The notes under the pieces were generated by a model that was given only the letters and a program-made list of their open reading frames with translations, had not been told where the DNA came from and did no database searches. From NCBI GenBank assembly GCA_963838125.1, contig CAWIPT010000007.1, forward strand, positions 1,060,237 to 1,124,236: 64,000 nucleotides of DNA. The letters run 5' to 3'. The translations under genes were made by a program, and so were the position numbers. The stretch comes from an uncultured Chloroflexia bacterium (lineage in GTDB: Bacteria > Chloroflexota > Limnocylindria > QHBO01). Positions 7,225 to 61,710 of this stretch are shown here, piece after piece (position 1 is the first letter of the stretch; each line of letters starts with the position of its first letter).

Positions 7225-7418
7225 GGGACATCTCCTGGGTGCGTGCGGCTATGACCGGGCACGGGAAGGGTCCGAACCCAGAGTGAATGGGCCTGTCGCT
7301 AGTCTACCGATCGGCCCTTTCGACGGAGAACCGGTCTGTCCACAACCTCGGCCGGAGTTGTCCACAACCTCGGGACCAATGGTGGATGGCCGTGCCCGCG
7401 CTCCACATTTCGACCCTA

Positions 7419-8657
7419 TCAGCCGGGGAACAGGTTCCGGAACCAGGTCCGCGCCCGGTTCACGCCGTCGCCGACCGGCGAGCGGGTGACGTAGCCGATC
7501 GGCTCCGCGCCCACGTGGCGGGCGCCCCACAGCAGCAGGCCGAGCGAGGTCGAGAATGCCGGGTTGGCGAGCTGGTCCATGAGTCCGCCCACGCCCTGTG
7601 GGGTGGCCACCCGGACCGGAAGCTCGAGCACGTCGCGTGCGAGCTCGGCGACGCCCGCCAGTCGCGCGCCACCGCCGGTCAGCACCAGGCCCGCCGGCAA
7701 CGGGCTGCCGTGCCCCGATCGCGCGACCTCCTCGCGGATGAGCTGATACAGCTCGCGCATGCGAGCCTCGATGATCTCGCTCAGCTTCCGGCGCTGGATG
7801 GTCTGTCCCCCGCCCTCGCCCATGACCGCCACATTGATCAGCTCCTCGGGCTGGACCTCGGCCACGTTCGACGTCCCGTGGCGGATCTTCACGTCCTCGG
7901 CCAGGTTCAGGCTGGTGCGCAGCCCGATCGCGACGTCGTTGGTGACGTGGATGCCGCCGACCGGGATCACCGCCGAGTGGTGGACGGCGCCGTCCACGAA
8001 AACCGCCATGTCGGTCGTGCCGCCGCCGATATCGGCCACGATCACGCCGAGCTCCTTCTCGGTATCGGTCAGGGTCGCCTCGGCTGCCGCCAGGGAGGCG
8101 ATGACCAGCTCGTCGATCTGGACCCCGGCCGAGCTGACGCACTTGCTCAGATTCTGGAGCGAGGTGCTCGCGCCAGCCACGATGTGGGTCTCGACCTCCA
8201 GCCGCACCGCGCTCATGCCGAGCGGGTCCTTGATTCCCTCCTGGCCATCCACGATGTAGCCGCGCGGGATGACGTGGAGGATCTCGCGGTTGGAGGGCAC
8301 CTGGACCGCGCGCGCGGCCTCGGTGGCGCGGGCAATGTCCTCCTTGGAGACCTCGCGGCGATGGCCGGAGACCGCCACCACGCCGCGACTGTTCTGGGAC
8401 GAGATGTGGCCCCCGCCAACCGAGACGAACGCCGAGCCGATCTTGTAGCCGGACAGCCGCTCGGCCTTCTCGATGCTGGTCGCGATCGACTGCACCGTCT
8501 GCTCGATGTTGGCGACCATCCCCTTCTTGATCCCGATCGAGGGGGCGATCCCATAGCCCACCACGTTCACGTCGCCGGCTGGCGTGACCTCGCCGATGAG
8601 GGTCGTCACCTTGGTGCTGCCGGGATCGATGCCCACCAGGACCGTTTCTCTGTCCAA
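7419..8657 (-). CDS. ftsA: cell division protein FtsA
   Basis: 412 aa actin-fold ATPase; VGIDPGSTKV N-terminus; immediately upstream of ftsZ. Confidence 0.95.
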   Translation of the reverse strand: MDRETVLVGIDPGSTKVTTLIGEVTPAGDVNVVGYGIAPSIGIKKGMVANIEQTVQSIATSIEKAERLSGYKIGSAFVSVGGGHISSQNSRGVVAVSGHRREVSKEDIARATEAARAVQVPSNREILHVIPRGYIVDGQEGIKDPLGMSAVRLEVETHIVAGASTSLQNLSKCVSSAGVQIDELVIASLAAAEATLTDTEKELGVIVADIGGGTTDMAVFVDGAVHHSAVIPVGGIHVTNDVAIGLRTSLNLAEDVKIRHGTSNVAEVQPEELINVAVMGEGGGQTIQRRKLSEIIEARMRELYQLIREEVARSGHGSPLPAGLVLTGGGARLAGVAELARDVLELPVRVATPQGVGGLMDQLANPAFSTSLGLLLWGARHVGAEPIGYVTRSPVGDGVNRARTWFRNLFPG

Positions 8658-51687: not shown

Positions 51688-53923
<2,236 letters not shown>

Positions 53924-53926
53924 CGG

Positions 53927-55742
53927 TCAGGATCCTCCTCGAGCCGGCACGGCCGGCGTCATCAGCAGCTTGGTGACCTCGGCCTTCTCGCGGCCGAGCT
54001 GGGTGATGTGCGTTTCAATTTGTTCGAGCAGCTCGCGGTCGCCGTCGCGTCCGGCATCCTCGAGCAGGTACCGCCCATCGCCGATCGCTTCCTCGATCCG
54101 CGCCTGGCGGAGTCGCAGTCGGCACACGCGAAGGGCATCGGCGGCCACCGCTGGGTCCAGCCGAGGCTGCGAGCCGGCGGCTTGGATGGCGGTGCGCGCC
54201 AGGTCGGCGGAGATCGGGTCGAGATCCGTCAGGAAGCCATCGACCTCCACCTGGCCGTTGTCCGACCGTGCGACCCAGGCCGCCCAGCCCTCGGCCAGGG
54301 CAGCCGCCTCCGGTCTCCCGAAGGGCAGCGGATTGGCGTCCAGGCCCGCAGTCAGTGCCAGGATGGCGGAACAGGAGCGCCAGGGTCTCGGTCTCCACCG
54401 GGTGAAGCGCCGGCGTTCCGGGCCCGACCGGCTCCCCCGGCGGTACGGCCTGTCGCTGGACACGCGGTCGGGCCAGGCCCTCCCGCAGGATTCGTTCGTC
54501 GACCTGGACGATGCGCGACAGCTCCTGGACGTAGAGGTCCTGGACGACCGCATCGGTCACCCGCTGGAGCTTGGCCAGGACGCGGCCCGCCATCTCACGG
54601 CGGCCTCCGACCGTGTTCAGGTCGACGCGCGCCGCCTCTCGCTCCATGAAGTAATCGATCAGCGGCTTCGCGTTGTCGATCGCCTCACGCCAGGCTCCAG
54701 GATCGGTTTGGAGCAGCTCGGCCGGGTCCTTGCCGGCGGGGATCCGAATGACGCGCAGCTTGGTGACATTCTGACTAGGACCGAGCTCGTCGAGCAGTCC
54801 CCGTTCGGTGGCGGCCTCGCCGGCCAGGTCGACGTCGTAGGCGAGGGTGATGGCATCGGCGTAGCGAGTGACGATCTCCACCTGGCCGCGCGTCAGCGCC
54901 GTCCCCATGGAGGCGACCACGTTCGTGAAGCCGGCCTGGTGAGCGGCCATGACGTCGGTGTAGCCCTCGACGATGACGGCCAGCTTCTCGCGCCGGATGG
55001 CGGTTCTCGCGAGATCGATGCCGTAGAGCGTGCGGCTCTTATCGAACAGAGCGGTAGCCGGCGAGTTGAGGTACTTGGGGCCCTCGCCATCCGGCATCAC
55101 CCGACCGCCAAGGCCGGTGGGCTTTCCGGTCGCGTCGCGGATGGGAATGATGATCCGGCGGCGGAATCGGTCCACCGGTCGTCCTCGCTGGCCCATGCTG
55201 GACAATCCGGCGGAGATCATCTCCTCGGACGAGAAGCCCCGCGATGCCAGGCGTGTGGCGAGGGCATCCCAGCTGTCGGGCGCGAAGCCGATGCCGAACT
55301 GCTCCAGCGTCTCCTCGGTGAAGCCACGCTCGGCGAGATACCGGCGGGCAGGCTCCGCCTGGTTGGCCTGCCGGAGCACATCGCGATACCAGCCGATGGC
55401 GGCCTCGAGCGCGTCACGCAGCCGCTTTCGGCGGCGGTCTTCCCGCGCACCGGCTGCGGACAGCTCCACCCCGGCGCGCTCGGCCAGGCGACCGAGGGCC
55501 TCGCGGAAGTCGATGCCGTCCCGCTTCATGACGAAGGTGAAGATGTCTCCGTGCTCTCCGCAACCGAAGCAGTGCCACGACTCCCGCTCGGGGCTCACCG
55601 TGAACGAGGGTGTCTTCTCACCGTGGAACGGGCACAGGCCCTTCCACGTGGATCCGGCCTTCTTCAGGACGACCGTCTCGCCCACGATCTCGGCGACGGG
55701 CAGGCGCGACTTGATCTCGGCGACCGAGCCGGGTGAGCTCAT
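53927..55742 (-). CDS. dnaG: DNA primase DnaG with a frame discontinuity near 54380-54390
   Basis: Zinc-binding CPFHGEKTPSF...CFGCG, TOPRIM (AVIVEGYTDV). The C-terminal helicase-binding domain is in the frame of ORF 53927..54553. Junction is LALLF / AILALTAG at ttccgcc. Confidence 0.9.
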
Positions 55743-55842
55743 TCGGGAGTCCTGCGCGCGAGTGCGGCGCGTGTCAAGTGATTTGTCAAGAGTTCTGTCA
55801 AGGGTCTGGACCCCATTTTAGTCCATTGTCAAGGGATCGGCC

Positions 55843-56442
55843 GTGAAAGGTACCCCGGGAGGGCGGCTGGAGTTCAAACGCTTCTGGGCTACCATCCGTG
55901 ACGTGGAGGAGAACTCGCGGAGCACCGACTTCGTCGAGCTGCACGCCGATCGTCTCTTCGGCTTCGCCATGATCGTGACCCTGGGGGACACGATCATCGC
56001 CGGCAAGCTCGCGGCGGAGGCGCTGGCGAAAGGCGTCGATCGCATCGAGCAGCTCCGCCATCCGGTGCGCGCCGCCGCGTGGCTGCGCGGTGCCGTCAGG
56101 AAAGCCGCTGGTCGTCCGGCCTGGGGCCACCGTCGGCCGGCCGACACCGAGCGCCGCGATGCGCTCCAGGCGCTGGGCGTGGACGCAGCGACGTACGACG
56201 CGCTGGCTAGCCTGGACGTCCGAGGCCGGGCGGCGGTGGCGGCGACGGCGGTTGAGGGGTTTTCCCCGGCGGACGTATTCGAGATCGTGGGCAGCGACGA
56301 GGAGGTGCGGAAGGCCCGTCGCGACTTCCTCACCGCCTACCTTGCCTCGTCGGCGACACGCGAGACCGCGCCTCCCGCAGGTGACCTTGCCTCTCGGGTG
56401 AAGTCAGTTGCGGCACCCGTGTTCGCTGGATCGAAGAAGTGA
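55843..56442 (+). CDS. ECF-type sigma factor (short, divergent)
   Basis: region 2-like FGFAMIVTLGDTIIAGKLAAEALAKG...AAAWLRGAV and region 4-like LDVRGRAAVAATAVEGFSPADVFEIVG; overlaps the downstream anti-sigma gene (TGATG). Confidence 0.55.
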   Translation: MKGTPGGRLEFKRFWATIRDVEENSRSTDFVELHADRLFGFAMIVTLGDTIIAGKLAAEALAKGVDRIEQLRHPVRAAAWLRGAVRKAAGRPAWGHRRPADTERRDALQALGVDAATYDALASLDVRGRAAVAATAVEGFSPADVFEIVGSDEEVRKARRDFLTAYLASSATRETAPPAGDLASRVKSVAAPVFAGSKK

Positions 56443-57368
56443 CCGATTCCCATCACCTCCTTGAAGCGTGGCTCGTGGAAGGGGCCGCGGGCGATCCGCC
56501 CCGCGAGCTGGCCGTGCACGCATCGGTCTGCGAATCCTGTGCCCGGCGCCTGGGCGCGTTCGACTCGCTGGCGGGAGTTGACGTTGCTGCGGCCGGCTCT
56601 CCCCCACCATTACCGCCACCCACGCGCGTGGCGGCAGCGCTCCTCTGGGCGCGGCTGGCGACCGCCGTGGCGGGAACGGTCGTGGCCGGCATCCTCGTCG
56701 TGTTCGGGATCTCGCAGCTCGTCGGGTTTGTCGGCTCGCTCGAGGGCAGCCCCGGTCCGTCCATCGTCGGACTGGCGACGCCGGCAGACTCCCAGAACCC
56801 GGGCGACACGCCCGGCCCGCAACCCGCGGTCGAACCCAGCCTGGCGACGGAGCCGTCCGGCACGCCTATTCCCTCGCACATCCCCCTGCCGTCACTCGCG
56901 CCGAACGAGCAACCACCCGATCCGCCGAACGCGCCCTCCCTCTCACTGAACGGGGTGGGTGCGCACTCGATCAGCATCAGATGGACTCCACGCTCCGGCG
57001 GCGGGCCGGTCCAGAAATGGGAAATCTGGCGCCGGACCGGATCCGGGGCGACCTGGATCAAGCTCGGTGAGCTGCCGACCTCCGCGCAGACCCTGACCAA
57101 CAGCGGCCTGGCCTCGGGGACCTCCTACTCGTTCCGCGTTCGGGCCGTCAATGTCGCGTGGCTCAGCTCGTTCTCGAACACCATCACGGCGACAACATCC
57201 GTGCCGCCGCCAAGCGCCACGCCGGTTCCGACGGCCACCCCAACGCCGGAGCCATCGATTCCTGAGACTCCGACCCCGGAGCCATCGATTCCTGAGACTC
57301 CGACCCCGGAGCCATCGATTCCTGAGACTCCGACCCCGGAGCCATCGATTCCACCTCCGTCGCCATAA
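56439..57368 (+). CDS. anti-sigma factor-like membrane protein: N-terminal ZAS motif, one TM, extracytoplasmic fibronectin type III domain, C-terminal (TPEPSIPE)x4 repeats
   Basis: HASVCESCARRL (H-x3-C-x2-C); TM AGTVVAGILVVFGISQLVGFV; FN3-like ISIRWTPRSGGGPVQKWEIW...SYSFRVRAVN. Confidence 0.65.
   Translation: MTDSHHLLEAWLVEGAAGDPPRELAVHASVCESCARRLGAFDSLAGVDVAAAGSPPPLPPPTRVAAALLWARLATAVAGTVVAGILVVFGISQLVGFVGSLEGSPGPSIVGLATPADSQNPGDTPGPQPAVEPSLATEPSGTPIPSHIPLPSLAPNEQPPDPPNAPSLSLNGVGAHSISIRWTPRSGGGPVQKWEIWRRTGSGATWIKLGELPTSAQTLTNSGLASGTSYSFRVRAVNVAWLSSFSNTITATTSVPPPSATPVPTATPTPEPSIPETPTPEPSIPETPTPEPSIPETPTPEPSIPPPSP
57246..57357. repeat. tandem 30-nt repeat x3.7 (ccggagccatcgattcctgagactccgacc) encoding TPEPSIPE units
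   Basis: seen directly in the sequence. Confidence 0.85.
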
Positions 57369-57450
57369 CTCCGTCGTTCGGTCGAGCGGAGGGGCGCATC
57401 GGTCGTGTAGAAGGGGCGCATCGGTATCGGTCTGTTGGTTGGAGGAACGC

Positions 57451-58593
57451 ATGGCTTTTGACATGTCCCTGGTCCAGCGCGGGGCGCGGTTGCGCCGGTC
57501 TCCGTTCTACGAGGCCGAGCAGGCCTACGGCCCGAGGGGCTACACGGTCTACAACCACATGCTGTTCCCGACCGGCTACGACGACTTCGAGGCCGAGTAC
57601 TGGCATCTCCTGAACCACGTGACGCTGTGGGACGTGGCGGTCGAACGGAACCTCGAGATCCAGGGACGGGACGGCTTCCGATTCGCGCAGCTGCTGACGC
57701 CCCGTGACCTGTCCAAGTGCTCGATCGGCCAGGGCAAATACGTGCTCATCACCGCTCCGGACGGGGGAATCGTCAACGACCCGGTCATGCTCCGCCTGGG
57801 CGAGAACCACTTCTGGTTCGCCCTGGCCAGCTCGGACGCGCTGCTCTACGCACTGGGCCTGGCCGCCAACCTGCGCTGGGACGTCCAGATCACCGAGCCT
57901 GACGTCTCACCGCTCCAGGTCCAGGGGCCACACTCCAAGGACGTGGTGGCCGCCCTGTTCGGCGAGAACATCCTTGAGCTGAAGTACTACTGGTTCCGCG
58001 AGCTGTCCCTGGACGGGATCCCGGTGGTCGTGACCCGGACCGGCTGGACGGCCGAGGTCGGATACGAGATCTATCTCCGCGACGGTCAGTACGGGACAGC
58101 GCTGTGGGAGCGGATCATGGAGGCCGGCAAGCCGTACGAGATTCGGCCCACCGGCCCGTCCGACATCCGGCGGGTGGAGGGCGGAATCCTGAACTGGGGC
58201 GCGGACATGGGCCTCGAGCACAACCCGTTCGAGGTCGGCCTCGAGCGGCTGTGTGCCCTGGACCGTGACTTCGACTTCATGGGCAAGGCATCGCTCCGTC
58301 AGATCCGCGATACCGGCTTGCGCCGCAAGCTGGTGGGCGTCGAGATCGGGGGTGACCGGCTGGAGATGAACTTCACGAAATGGCCGGTCACGGCCGATGG
58401 CGCGCCGGTGGGCCAGGTCACGTCCGCGGTGTGGTCGCCGCGCCTGGAAAGGAACATCGGGTACGCGTGGCTGCCCATCGAGCGGGCCGAAGACGGAAAC
58501 CGGGTCGCCGTGACCACCCCTGATGGCGAGCGGGAGGCCACCGTGGTGCCGATGCCGTTCATCGATCCGGGCAAGGCGATTCCCAAGTCGTGA
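57451..58593 (+). CDS. aminomethyltransferase (GcvT/DmdA/LigM-like) family folate-dependent enzyme
   Basis: 380 aa from ATG 57451 with GGAGGAA upstream; GcvT-fold N-terminal domain and C-terminal barrel; distinct from the gcvT at 476-1621. Confidence 0.8.
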   Translation: MAFDMSLVQRGARLRRSPFYEAEQAYGPRGYTVYNHMLFPTGYDDFEAEYWHLLNHVTLWDVAVERNLEIQGRDGFRFAQLLTPRDLSKCSIGQGKYVLITAPDGGIVNDPVMLRLGENHFWFALASSDALLYALGLAANLRWDVQITEPDVSPLQVQGPHSKDVVAALFGENILELKYYWFRELSLDGIPVVVTRTGWTAEVGYEIYLRDGQYGTALWERIMEAGKPYEIRPTGPSDIRRVEGGILNWGADMGLEHNPFEVGLERLCALDRDFDFMGKASLRQIRDTGLRRKLVGVEIGGDRLEMNFTKWPVTADGAPVGQVTSAVWSPRLERNIGYAWLPIERAEDGNRVAVTTPDGEREATVVPMPFIDPGKAIPKS

Positions 58594-58627
58594 CCGAGGC
58601 CCAGGGGTCGGGTTAGGAGCTCGGTCA

Positions 58628-58984
58628 ATGGCCACCGGGGAGGACGTCCGACGGATCGCGCTGTCACTGCCCGAATCGATCGAGGAGCCCGGCCGCTTTT
58701 CGTTCGCCGTTGACGGAAAGGCATTCGCCTGGGTCTGGCTCGAGCGAGTCGACCCGCGTCGTCCTCGAGTGCCGAACCCGGACGTCATCGCGGTGCGGGT
58801 GACGAACCAGCTCGAGAAGGACAGCCTCCTCGCTCTTGACCACGAGGCGTTCTTCACCGAGCCGCACTATGACGGCTATCCGGCGGTGCTGGTCAGCCTC
58901 CCAAAGATCGAGCTCGATCTGTTGACCGAGGTGCTGACCGCGGCCTGGCGGTCACGCGCGCCGAAGCGCCTGCTCACCGACTGA
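58628..58984 (+). CDS. MmcQ/YjbR-family (DUF419) protein
   Basis: 118 aa from ATG 58628; YjbR-like sequence. Confidence 0.6.
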   Translation: MATGEDVRRIALSLPESIEEPGRFSFAVDGKAFAWVWLERVDPRRPRVPNPDVIAVRVTNQLEKDSLLALDHEAFFTEPHYDGYPAVLVSLPKIELDLLTEVLTAAWRSRAPKRLLTD

Positions 58985-59003
58985 CGGATCGGCGGAACGC
59001 GGC

Positions 59004-60023
59004 TCAGGCCGCGAGGCGGGGCGGCAGGCCAAAGGTCGGGAAGTAGCGCGCCGTGTCGAGGAAGAACGTGATCCCGCTGATTCGCCCGTCGGTGATCTCC
59101 AGCACCTGGATGGACCACGGCTCCAGGACCCCGGCCTCGGCGCTCGGCTTGTACTGGCCGAAGGCCGGCGACCCGTTGGCCTGGACCGGCACCAATCGCG
59201 AGCCCTCGCAGCCGATTCCCGGGCCGAGGCACCACGCGCGGATATCGTCGTGCGTCCGGAGCCACAGGTCGTAGGGCGGCATGTTCCATGACGCGTCTTC
59301 CTGGAGGAGGGCGGTGAGCGCGTCCATGTCGTAGCGCTCGAACGCATCCACGTACCTGGCGATCAGCGCCTCAGTCCCCTCGTCGAGCGGGCCGGATTCG
59401 ACGGTCTCGAGACTGATCCGGCGTTCCGCCAACGTCGCCCGTGCGCGTTGCAGCGCGCTGTTGACCGATGCGACCGAGGTGTCGAACAGCTCCGCCACTT
59501 CCGACGCCTGCCAGCGCAGGACCTCGCGCAGGATGAGGACGGCACGCTGGCGGGGCGGGAGGTGCTGGAGCGCGGCCATGAACGCCAGTCGGATGGACTC
59601 GCGGGCCACCGCAACGTCAGCCGGATCCCCCTCCGGGACCACCCGACCGTCCGGAATGGGCTCGATCCAGACCGATTCCTCCAGCGGCGCCGGCAGGGGT
59701 GTGTCAGCCGATCGGGCGGGGCCCAGGTCCATCGGTCGTGCCCGCCGTTCTCGACCGCTCAACATGTCGAGGCACACGTTGGTCGCAATCCGGTACAGCC
59801 ACGACCGGAGCGCCGAGCGGCCCTCGAATCGGTCGATCGCGCGCCAGGCCCGGAGCAGCGTCTCCTGGACGGCGTCTTCCGCTTCGAATGTCGAGCCGAG
59901 CATGCGATAGCAGTAGCCCAGCAGCTCGGATCGATAGGCCTCCAGCTCGGGCGAGACGTCGGCTACAGCGGGACGCTCGGCCACGGCGCCGAACGCGTGC
60001 CCTTCATTTCGTGGTCCGGTCAC
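59004..60023 (-). CDS. ECF sigma factor, ECF41/SigJ-like, with a C-terminal SnoaL-like extension
   Basis: regions 2 and 4 (EDAVQETLLRAW...SWLYRIATN; RQRAVLILREVLRWQASEVAEL); C-terminal YDMDALTALLQEDASW and a conserved YVGPWE-like region. Confidence 0.85.
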   Translation of the reverse strand: MTGPRNEGHAFGAVAERPAVADVSPELEAYRSELLGYCYRMLGSTFEAEDAVQETLLRAWRAIDRFEGRSALRSWLYRIATNVCLDMLSGRERRARPMDLGPARSADTPLPAPLEESVWIEPIPDGRVVPEGDPADVAVARESIRLAFMAALQHLPPRQRAVLILREVLRWQASEVAELFDTSVASVNSALQRARATLAERRISLETVESGPLDEGTEALIARYVDAFERYDMDALTALLQEDASWNMPPYDLWLRTHDDIRAWCLGPGIGCEGSRLVPVQANGSPAFGQYKPSAEAGVLEPWSIQVLEITDGRISGITFFLDTARYFPTFGLPPRLAA

Positions 60024-60333: not shown

Positions 60334-61710
60334 TCAGCCCGCGGGCGGCACGTTCTGGTTGCGCCGGAACAGGTTGGTCGGGTCGTACCGTGCCTTCAGC
60401 CGGGCGAGACGCTCCCAAGTCGGTCCGGGGTAGGCATCCCGGACGCGATCAGCCCCTTCGTCCCCGACGAAGTTGACGTACGCCCCGTGGTCGTCCTGGC
60501 GGATGGCGTCGGCGAACTCATCCAGCCAAGCCTGGCGCACGACTCGATCCTCGGGGCCTTCAAAGAACGCGGCGAGGTTGACCATGATCGGGCTCGTCCG
60601 GTGAGCGAATGCGGTCGCGTCACCCGGCACCCGGGCCATCGCGCCGCCGAGGACCCGAAGCTGCGCGACCCGCATCGACGCGTTCGAGGCCTCGAGGTGC
60701 CGCATGATCTCGCGCGCCACATCGAGGTCGATGCGATTCACGAACATGGTCGTGACCACGGCCGTGGGCCGGTATGACTCGTCATCGGGCGGGTAGATCT
60801 CGGGGTAGGACATGGGCTTCACCATGTCCGTGATGGGCTCGGCCAGGGCACGGAATGGGGCAATGGCCCGCTCCCCGGCCTCGGCATCGCCGGCGTAGCA
60901 GAGGATGCCGAAGATCACCAGCTGGCCCTGCGCGTCCTCGGGGATGAATGGCGCCGGTGGCGCGGGCATCACGTTGGCGATGGTCGACAGCTCCTCGGGC
61001 GCCAACAGGGCGGCCCGGATGAAGCCGGCCACCGTCTCGGCGGTGGCCGGCAGGACGAGGAAGCCGCCCACGATCCCTGGCACCTCCTGGAGCGCGAACC
61101 GGAAACGGGTGGCCACACCGAAGTTGCCGCCTCCGCCCCGGATGGCCCAGAACAGGTCCGGATCGGTCTGCTCGTCCACCTGGCGGATCTCGCCGTCAGC
61201 GGTCACGACCTCGACAGCGAGGAGCGAATCGATGGTCAGTCCGTACTTGCGGACGAGGTAGCCGACGCCGCCGCCGAGGGTGAGCCCCCCGAGACCGACC
61301 GACCCGGTGTCTCCGAATCCGACAGCCAGACCATGCTCCGCGGCAGCTGTCGTGAATTCCGCCGCGGTGAGGCCGCTCCCGGCCCACGCGGTTCGTCCCG
61401 CGGGATCGATGTCGATGCCCTTCAGGTCGCGCAGGTCGATCACCACCCCGCCCTCGGTGGTGCCATGGCCCGCGCCACTGTGGCCGCCGCTGCGGACCGC
61501 GAGCTCGAGGCCCGCATCGCGGGCAACCGCCACGACATGGGCGACATCGGCCGCATTCGCGACACGGACGATCGCGCCCGGGTGGCTGTCGTCCGTGCCG
61601 AGCATGATGATCCTCAGGGCGTCGTAGTCGGAGTCGTCGGGAGTGATGACTCGGCCGTCGAGCCCGTCACGGAGTTCAGGGATGGGGATCATGGACGAGA
61701 GAGTGGCCAT
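60334..61710 (-). CDS. FAD-linked oxidase (FAD_binding_4 / BBE-like)
   Basis: 458 aa; VRSGGHSGAGHG FAD-binding motif; BBE-like C-terminus. Confidence 0.85.
   Translation of the reverse strand: MATLSSMIPIPELRDGLDGRVITPDDSDYDALRIIMLGTDDSHPGAIVRVANAADVAHVVAVARDAGLELAVRSGGHSGAGHGTTEGGVVIDLRDLKGIDIDPAGRTAWAGSGLTAAEFTTAAAEHGLAVGFGDTGSVGLGGLTLGGGVGYLVRKYGLTIDSLLAVEVVTADGEIRQVDEQTDPDLFWAIRGGGGNFGVATRFRFALQEVPGIVGGFLVLPATAETVAGFIRAALLAPEELSTIANVMPAPPAPFIPEDAQGQLVIFGILCYAGDAEAGERAIAPFRALAEPITDMVKPMSYPEIYPPDDESYRPTAVVTTMFVNRIDLDVAREIMRHLEASNASMRVAQLRVLGGAMARVPGDATAFAHRTSPIMVNLAAFFEGPEDRVVRQAWLDEFADAIRQDDHGAYVNFVGDEGADRVRDAYPGPTWERLARLKARYDPTNLFRRNQNVPPAG

Follow-up and report, generated by a model that had tools for sequence, protein, structure and literature searches.

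Can a protein that the standard sigma factor profiles pass over still form one half of a sigma/anti-sigma pair? This question is raised by a locus in a 64,000-nucleotide stretch of DNA, referred to here as the window, from an uncultured Chloroflexia bacterium of the class Limnocylindria (contig CAWIPT010000007.1). Within positions 55843-58593 of the window, the listing of open reading frames (ORFs) places three plus-strand ORFs that are divergent from dnaG (54015-55742, minus strand) and rpoD (51688-53490, minus strand). They encode a sigma-like protein, a membrane protein resembling zinc-binding anti-sigma (ZAS) factors, and a GcvT-family aminomethyltransferase. A preliminary description, made from the sequence alone, labelled the first two an extracytoplasmic function (ECF)-like sigma with a ZAS/FN3 anti-sigma. 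That label is a fair description of the two proteins, but it puts its emphasis on the FN3 domain, the repeat and the GcvT neighbor, which are peripheral and variable. The locus is probably a translationally coupled two-gene module in which a very diverged ECF (group 4) sigma factor is encoded together with its cognate class I membrane ZAS anti-sigma factor, and which occurs class-wide in Limnocylindria.

Limnocylindria, a class of Chloroflexota without cultured members, are abundant in soil and fresh water. If the above reading is true, they carry a very divergent group of ECF-like sigma/ZAS pairs that has not been described before and that standard domain profiles miss; numbers of sigma factors taken as a measure of regulatory complexity in this lineage (e.g., PMC13212565) would then be too low. 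In the literature we found no description of this sigma-like family or of FN3-bearing ZAS anti-sigma factors. The FN3 domain, the repeat and the GcvT neighbor are each ordinary when taken alone, and the mildly novel part is a divergent pair that is found throughout Limnocylindria and is locked next to dnaG-rpoD.

Sequence and predicted fold of the sigma-like protein

The sigma-like gene (ORF1; 55903-56442, plus strand) was characterized by profile searches, a family alignment and an AlphaFold2 (AF2) model, and encodes 179 aa, the length of the majority of its homologues. The protein matched the NCBIfam ECF subfamily model TIGR02983 at E=2e-7, with a score of 31 bits against a curated cut-off of 141.55. 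The same model was matched by 28 of 28 family members (best E=3.9e-9) over model positions 8-138 of 162, a span that takes in both sigma2 and sigma4. When a profile of these 28 sequences was compared with the PDB, Mycobacterium tuberculosis SigH was recovered at E=5e-4, followed by a SigH/SigE chimera at 3e-3 with sigma2 included, by SigE, and by PhyR proteins at ~6e-3.

The AF2 model of the protein is all-helical, with a predicted local distance difference test (pLDDT) score of 88 and a predicted template modelling (pTM) score of 0.80. It contains two helical domains, sigma2 and sigma4, and is without regions 1.1 or 3. In a Foldseek search of the PDB, the top 25 matches to the model were all ECF sigma factors or PhyR, with probabilities of ~1 and modest E-values of 0.02-0.8; the best template modelling (TM) scores, 0.5-0.6, were to the compact anti-sigma-bound forms in SigW/RsiW, RpoE/NepR and CnrH/CnrY.

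The family alignment shows the motif F..LH..RL.GFA..V.LGD...A in region 2, followed by an invariant LRHPxRAAAWLR, and the motif L..L....RAA......VE....DV in region 4, followed by an R-rich helix. A combination of sigma2 and sigma4 in ~180 aa is characteristic of ECF (group 4) sigma factors, including the actinobacterial SigE family described by TIGR02983, SigH/SigE/SigL of M. tuberculosis, and SigW of Bacillus subtilis. The motifs of regions 2.1-2.3 (LGD...A, W-L) and of region 4 (L..L....R..v.....eg.s..d) are shared with these proteins, as is the fold predicted by the model. Judged by sequence and predicted structure, the ORF1 protein is probably homologous to ECF sigma factors, with the same predicted fold, and it is so divergent that curated thresholds fail.

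The anti-sigma-like protein and its putative zinc ligands

The second gene (ORF2; 56439-57368, plus strand; 309 aa) begins with a cytoplasmic anti-sigma domain of three predicted helices (residues 1-46; 56439-56576, plus strand) bearing the putative zinc ligands H5, H27, C31 and C34, an assignment that draws on the invariant residues, a match to ChrR and the AF2 model. The last three of these residues form an H-x3-C-x2-C motif (56517-56540, plus strand), which was found in the partner of the sigma-like gene at 82 of 82 loci. None of the four putative ligands varies among 48 database homologues or among 43 further N-terminal sequences, and W11, R22, A25 and A28 are likewise invariant. ChrR (2q1z_B), the prototype of zinc anti-sigma factors, is the closest solved relative of the domain, and the match is weak (E=0.023 with the single sequence and 0.013 with a profile). 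The ChrR alignment pairs the HxxxCxxC ligands, and the single-sequence alignment pairs the N-terminal His as well. The H-x3-C-x2-C motif with a His ~22 residues earlier is a likeness to ZAS proteins of the ChrR/RsrA/RsiW type; the corresponding residues of ChrR are H6, H31, C35 and C38.

The AF2 model places helices at residues 4-13, 22-30 and 32-45, then a Pro-rich break, and then a 36-residue helix at 63-98. Class I anti-sigma domains consist of a three-helix bundle and a fourth helix (PMC7406223), and the N-terminal portion of the modelled helix 63-98 could act as helix 4 of this fold. A juxtamembrane helix and single transmembrane segment span ~residues 64-103 (56628-56747, plus strand), as indicated by this helix and by the Kyte-Doolittle profile, which reaches its maximum of 2.37 over residues 67-103, the single hydrophobic region in ORF2. 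The H27-x3-C31-x2-C34 motif and the one hydrophobic helix bear out the earlier call of a ZAS-type single-pass membrane protein. The predicted N-terminal three-helix domain with a possible further helix resembles class I ZAS proteins, and the single-pass topology is that of RsiW (PMC7406223). A membrane-bound ZAS protein is ordinary, since a zinc motif is present in ~48% of membrane-bound class I anti-sigma domains (PMC7406223).

Gene overlap and conservation of the locus

The start codon of ORF2 overlaps the stop codon of ORF1 by 4 nt. The overlap had been described as TGATG, and the actual sequence is GTGA (aag aag TGA / GTG acc). To place the pair in context we used a scan of one genome per species, in which 127 genomes had a relative, and 80 loci were fetched. 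Homologues of the sigma-like protein are almost confined to Candidatus Limnocylindria and Chloroflexota metagenome-assembled genomes. The order rpoD, dnaG (minus strand), sigma-like gene, anti-sigma gene (plus strand) is kept in ~79 of the 80 related Limnocylindria loci, down to ~36-40% identity, and the sigma-like and anti-sigma genes are adjacent in essentially all 80 related loci from genome contigs. A 4-nt overlap of the sigma stop and the anti-sigma start recurs in ~75 of 82 loci. These data show a translationally coupled pair with class-wide synteny, and an anti-sigma gene directly downstream of its sigma gene and co-transcribed with it is also the arrangement in ECF pairs.

In some genomes the two genes are fused. 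Natural sigma::anti-sigma fusions were found as single ORFs (P0205/P0296, P0202, P0283 and P0285), and two of the fusion proteins are 85% identical to each other, an identity that favors a real, lineage-specific fusion over an isolated gene-calling error. The overlap, the synteny and the natural fusions together suggest that the sigma-like and ZAS proteins are partners. Because the pair is universally present and has a fixed place beside dnaG-rpoD, it may well serve a stress pathway at the housekeeping level and not an accessory one.

Three loci have a second diverged sigma-like/ZAS pair, or extra sequence, that either separates dnaG from the conserved pair or follows that pair (L075 2230-3974, L041 and L033). 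This points to occasional tandem duplication of the module.

Is the sigma-like protein an active sigma factor?

Several results weigh against reading the ORF1 protein as a working ECF sigma factor with a conventional ZAS partner. The preliminary description had called ORF1 a short divergent ECF-type sigma and had set a search with the Pfam Sigma70_r2/r4 profiles as the test of that call. The window protein gave no match to either, even at E<=1; the TIGR02983 match, the SigH profile match and the AF2 fold uphold the call, and Pfam sigma70 r2/r4 does not. Sigma70 region 2 (PF04542) was likewise not matched by any of the 28 family members at E<=0.1. In the same searches a canonical ECF41-like sigma factor encoded ~3 kb downstream served as a control and scored 1.1e-21 (r2) and 1.2e-15 (r4). 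When the family was aligned with this canonical ECF protein of the window by hhalign, only part of region 4 (4.1-4.2) was aligned, at a probability of 8.8%. The recognition helix of region 4.2 is 5 residues shorter at its start in the window's clade than in the distant/outgroup clade. An exhaustive profile search of 1.84 billion cluster representatives returned 580 matches at E<=1e-3, 184 of which reached E<=1e-10; by this measure the proteins form a small family of their own, set apart from the mass of ECF sigma factors. The protein resembles the non-initiating sigma-like domain of PhyR about as strongly as it resembles real sigma factors. On the side of the partner, the window anti-sigma did not match Pfam zf-HC2 (PF13490), and of 48 homologues 3 did so, the best of them at E=0.17. 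Upstream of the sigma-like gene, no autoregulatory promoter of the ECF type was seen, and the conserved element there is a housekeeping-type TAnnnT.

The family thus departs from ECF sigma factors in its scores, its confinement to one class, its shortened recognition helix, its promoter and its fixed place next to dnaG-rpoD. It also has an extra conserved C-terminal helix, present in all members and with G160 and R165 invariant. The partner differs from known class I ZAS proteins in that its cytoplasmic domain is very short (~46 aa), its putative fourth helix is continuous with the transmembrane helix, and its ectodomain is mostly Pro-rich disorder and not a defined sensor.

These departures can be read in another way: the sigma-like protein would be a degenerate sigma factor that has ceased to initiate transcription and serves as a decoy or an adaptor. 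It could, for instance, imitate a sigma factor as the PhyR domain does, though as a free-standing protein, and bind either the ZAS protein or some different partner; the pair would then modulate another factor, possibly the adjacent primary sigma/primase operon. PhyR_sigma-like (PF22233) is the sole Pfam match of the window protein (E=1.6e-3) and the best Pfam match of the family, found in 18 of 28 members, and PhyR structures are among the top sequence and fold matches. The sigma-like domain of PhyR, the anti-anti-sigma in the general stress response of alphaproteobacteria, is likewise an ECF-derived protein that escapes standard sigma profiles. The shortened region 4.2, the missing ECF-type promoter, and the standing of the sigma-like gene as a core syntenic gene beside dnaG-rpoD, which is not typical of accessory ECF sigma factors, fit this reading too. 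However, conservation is strong in the sigma2-like motif and in the R-rich recognition helix, and region 4.2 is of full length in the outgroup clade; Sigma70_r4_2 was matched by 7 of 28 relatives, with some outgroup members reaching 7.5e-6, the best E-value, whereas the window protein matched neither PF08281 nor PF04545. Unlike PhyR, the 179-aa protein has no receiver domain by Pfam or NCBIfam, nor any other switch domain, so the logic of a mimic is lacking. It also differs from PhyR in phylum and in its partner, which is not NepR but a ZAS membrane protein; a ZAS partner is the classic setup of a real ECF sigma factor. On balance we regard a non-initiating decoy or adaptor as unlikely, and a very diverged sigma factor held by its ZAS partner as the probable identity of the pair.

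The extracytoplasmic region

Beyond the membrane, the anti-sigma-like protein continues as a Pro-rich extracytoplasmic linker (residues 104-162; 56748-56924, plus strand) that is predicted to be disordered from its composition and the AF2 model, in which residues 103-140 have pLDDT below 50. Family-wide, the extracytoplasmic part has a median length of 145 aa and median contents of 24% Pro and 73% P/T/S/A/G. Because of this composition, the conserved core of the ectodomain is in essence a Pro-rich disordered segment.

In the window the linker is followed by a fibronectin type III (FN3) domain (residues 163-252; 56925-57194, plus strand). Its presence, as claimed earlier, is secured by a Pfam match to PF00041 at E=6.2e-11 (42.8 bits; gathering cut-off 25) and by Foldseek, which matched the region to canonical FN3 domains with target-normalised TM scores of ~0.75-0.85 and E-values of ~1e-8 to 1e-7. 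The AF2 model shows a sandwich of seven strands with pLDDT above 95. The distribution of the domain is narrow: by tblastn, FN3 was detected at 13 of 85 fetched loci, of which 12 belong to the window's subclade and 1 is a weak, distant case (L025, 36% identity). A second FN3 domain is present in one anti-sigma orthologue (P0073).

The C-terminal tail (residues 253-309; 57195-57365) is P/T/E-rich and predicted to be unstructured and contains a perfect tandem repeat (57246-57352, plus strand; Tandem Repeats Finder (TRF) score 214, 100% matches) that is far beyond chance. The preliminary description gave this as a perfect 30-nt repeat in four copies encoding TPEPSIPE. The perfection and the period of 30 nt are right, but there are 3.6 copies, a number that carries a caveat from the frame breaks described below for dnaG and rpoD, and the unit is TPTPEPSIPE, 10 aa and not 8. 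It is encoded three times and is followed by TPTPEPSIPP.

The tail is hypervariable among relatives, where Cys-rich CxDGxDNDxDG modules, a second FN3 domain or other P/T repeats follow FN3. The TPTPEPSIPE array is missing from L086, the closest long-contig relative (87% sigma identity). Within the same 90% sigma cluster, L088 carries TPEP five times, L086 and L090 carry other modules, and L089 has one unit resembling PTPTPAASIPET where its contig ends. These differences among strains of one cluster support the recent expansion or contraction of the repeat proposed in the preliminary description, and the comparison of loci identifies the TPTPEPSIPE repeat as a strain-level feature. Judged from the same sequences, FN3 and the TPTPEPSIPE tail are lineage-specific and strain-specific decorations of the ectodomain and not its core. 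The hypervariable ectodomain, with its Pro-rich core, optional FN3, Cys-rich modules and strain-specific P/T/E repeats, offers a natural series for asking what it senses.

Two to six Cys-rich CxDGxDNDxDGxxD repeats stand after FN3 or after the Pro-rich region in some orthologues (L001 ~7300-7800; P0072, P0088, P0102 and P0285); among these orthologues there was one weak Pfam match, to Cu-binding_MopE.

A possible route from envelope signal to transcription

If the pair is a sigma factor and its anti-sigma, the latter would use its N-terminal zinc domain of three helices, together with the juxtamembrane helix, to clamp the sigma-like protein at the membrane, as in the ECF/class I pairs of ChrR, RsiW and RslA (PMC7406223). 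A signal acting on the extracytoplasmic part would then release the sigma factor, most plausibly through proteolysis of the anti-sigma that starts from the ectodomain; thiol oxidation would be a less likely route of release. The freed sigma factor would bind core RNA polymerase and transcribe its regulon, and this is the step of which we are least certain.

A disordered ectodomain may serve as the signal receiver, for which RsgI of Bacillus subtilis provides a precedent (PMC9732909), by an analogy of composition. Like the ORF2 protein, RsgI of the SigI/RsgI system is a single-pass protein with a poorly conserved, compositionally biased and disordered ectodomain, and some of its paralogues have folded modules appended to that ectodomain (PMC9732909). 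The two systems differ in that SigI is not an ECF sigma factor, the cytoplasmic anti-sigma domains are different, and no juxtamembrane autoproteolytic domain is evident in the ORF2 protein.

The GcvT/DmdA-like gene

The third gene (57452-58593, plus strand; 380 aa) encodes a GcvT-family aminomethyltransferase and is a neighbor outside the conserved unit. The GcvT fold named in the preliminary description was recovered by Pfam, with GCV_T at E=1.2e-41 and GCV_T_C at E=2.9e-19. The DmdA equivalog model of NCBIfam (NF009133) gave 387.1 bits, under its curated cut-off of 410; the gene is DmdA-like by score, and the sequence match does not warrant assignment of a substrate. A 480-aa ORF listed from 57151 is an artefact of the ORF listing, and the true start of the GcvT-like gene is the ATG at 57452.

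The preliminary description joined these parts into one model, in which FN3 is the extracytoplasmic sensor and the GcvT-fold demethylase is the gene switched on by the sigma factor. The three genes do lie on the same strand, the gap between the anti-sigma stop and the GcvT-like start is 83 nt with no terminator-like site found there by a consensus scan, and FN3 is well folded and is conserved inside the subclade. The wider set of loci speaks against the model on both counts. All but one of the distant members are without FN3 and keep the sigma-like protein, the ZAS domain and the transmembrane helix; FN3 is not the conserved part. The GcvT/DmdA-like gene is restricted to the window's subclade (L001-L020); the distant loci all lack it and have ppdK directly after the pair. 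It has its own conserved upstream sequence, no promoter motif in common with the sigma operon was seen, and nothing links it to a regulon. We therefore consider it very improbable that FN3 is the sensor and the demethylase the target. The comparison of loci indicates that the GcvT/DmdA-like gene is a later, subclade-specific insertion beside the sigma/anti-sigma pair.

Just upstream of the GcvT/DmdA-like gene there is a 22-nt direct repeat, TCGGTCGAGTAGAAGGGGCGCA, in 2.2 copies (57378-57425). The proximal copy and the 40 nt that follow it are almost the same in L086. Nothing was found at E<=1 when 53400-59100 was scanned against Rfam, and the 22-nt repeat corresponds to no known riboswitch.

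The dnaG/sigma-like intergenic region

A conserved cis-module (55772-55833) was identified from motif counts across loci. In the window it consists of TGTCAAG boxes at 55772, 55784, 55796 and 55827 around the hexamer ATTTTA (55815-55820), and it holds 4 of the 5 TGTCAAG copies of the 64-kb sequence. The architecture TGTCAAG-N5-TGTCAAG-N11-nATTCTAn-N5-TGTCAAG, with a 12-bp period of the boxes, is present in 73 of 76 distinct loci; compared with it, the window has one additional box on the upstream side. Read on the minus strand, the hexamer at the center is TAnnnT in every case (TAGAAT, TAAAAT, TATAAT and so on; TAAAAT in the window), often after TGn. By its sequence it resembles a housekeeping-type -10 element that faces dnaG-rpoD. 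One of the boxes, which read CTTGACA on the minus strand, lies 6 nt upstream of this element, and two lie at ~+7 to +25.

The boxes were also considered as -35 elements. On the minus strand 6 nt separate them from the conserved TAGAAT, and on the plus strand the distance is 13-14 nt; no -10 element lies 17 nt after box 1 or box 2. Because this spacing does not fit a -35 element, the TGTCAAG boxes are treated as putative protein-binding sites. Direct repeats with a 12-bp period resemble the sites of OmpR/PhoB-family response regulators.

Such an array invites the proposal that the sigma-like protein is an ordinary DNA-binding regulator, which would use its sigma4 helix-turn-helix on the TGTCAAG boxes and thereby couple envelope signals to dnaG-rpoD and to its own operon. 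The array is nearly universal and flanks the housekeeping-type -10 that faces dnaG, the window has just one further TGTCAAG, and a cis-element that is unique to a region and lies beside a regulator gene is often the site of that regulator. Yet the 12-bp direct repeats suit winged-helix response regulators at least equally well, and a sigma4 domain that is not joined by core polymerase is usually a poor DNA binder. We think this role very improbable. Hardly more probable is a related proposal, in which the pair is a class-wide core-genome ECF derivative that has lost promoter recognition and, with its zinc partner, feeds an envelope or redox signal into the divergent dnaG-rpoD promoter bracketed by the CTTGACA array. 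A sigma/anti-sigma module remains our preferred reading.

ORF1 could be extended by 20 codons to 199 aa from an alternative GTG at 55843. When orthologous loci were compared, 55843-55903 proved to be conserved as DNA and not as protein. An N-terminal coding extension was rejected because orthologues differ in frame or have an in-frame stop here: one locus (L004) has an in-frame TGA upstream of the sigma-like start, and in another (L001) the conserved GGCTACCAT occupies a different frame from the sigma-like gene. For these reasons the GTG at 55903 is probably the start.

Seven nucleotides upstream of this GTG there is a -10-like hexamer, TACCAT (55890-55895, plus strand), which is conserved among the loci. 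TACCAT, TACACT or TAGACT is kept upstream of the sigma-like gene in nearly all loci and stands 6-9 nt before the start in the window's clade, and in the window there is no Shine-Dalgarno sequence between TACCAT and the GTG. From its position, TACCAT is a likely promoter element of the sigma-like gene, and the mRNA may be leaderless or near-leaderless. In the distant clade, TACACT or TAGACT lies ~55-100 nt upstream of the start estimated by tblastn and precedes a C/A-rich leader with repeated CCGCACC. The sequence comparison suggests that the window's clade has lost this leader and has a leaderless mRNA. A consensus scan of 55600-58800 for promoters and terminators found nothing, with no canonical -35/-10 pair.

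Neighboring genes

The window dnaG is frameshifted at ~54356, where the orthologous DnaG aligns in frame -3 and then in frame -1. In the 5' region of rpoD (~53490-53923), sequence that precedes the first start codon of the ORF is matched by RpoD orthologues; an Ala/Lys/Pro-rich ORF (53249-53923) occupies a frame other than that of rpoD, which looks disrupted near 53600. The frame breaks probably stem from indel errors in a long-read assembly, and it is less likely that two essential genes are truly frameshifted; therefore the copy number of the 30-nt repeat carries the caveat given above.

Downstream of the locus, the canonical ECF41-like sigma factor that served as a control is encoded on the minus strand (59004-60023) and is fused to a SnoaL_2 domain. 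Near it are a YjbR-like ORF, a small cupin and an FAD/BBE oxidase (58523-58984, plus strand; 60334-61710, minus strand).

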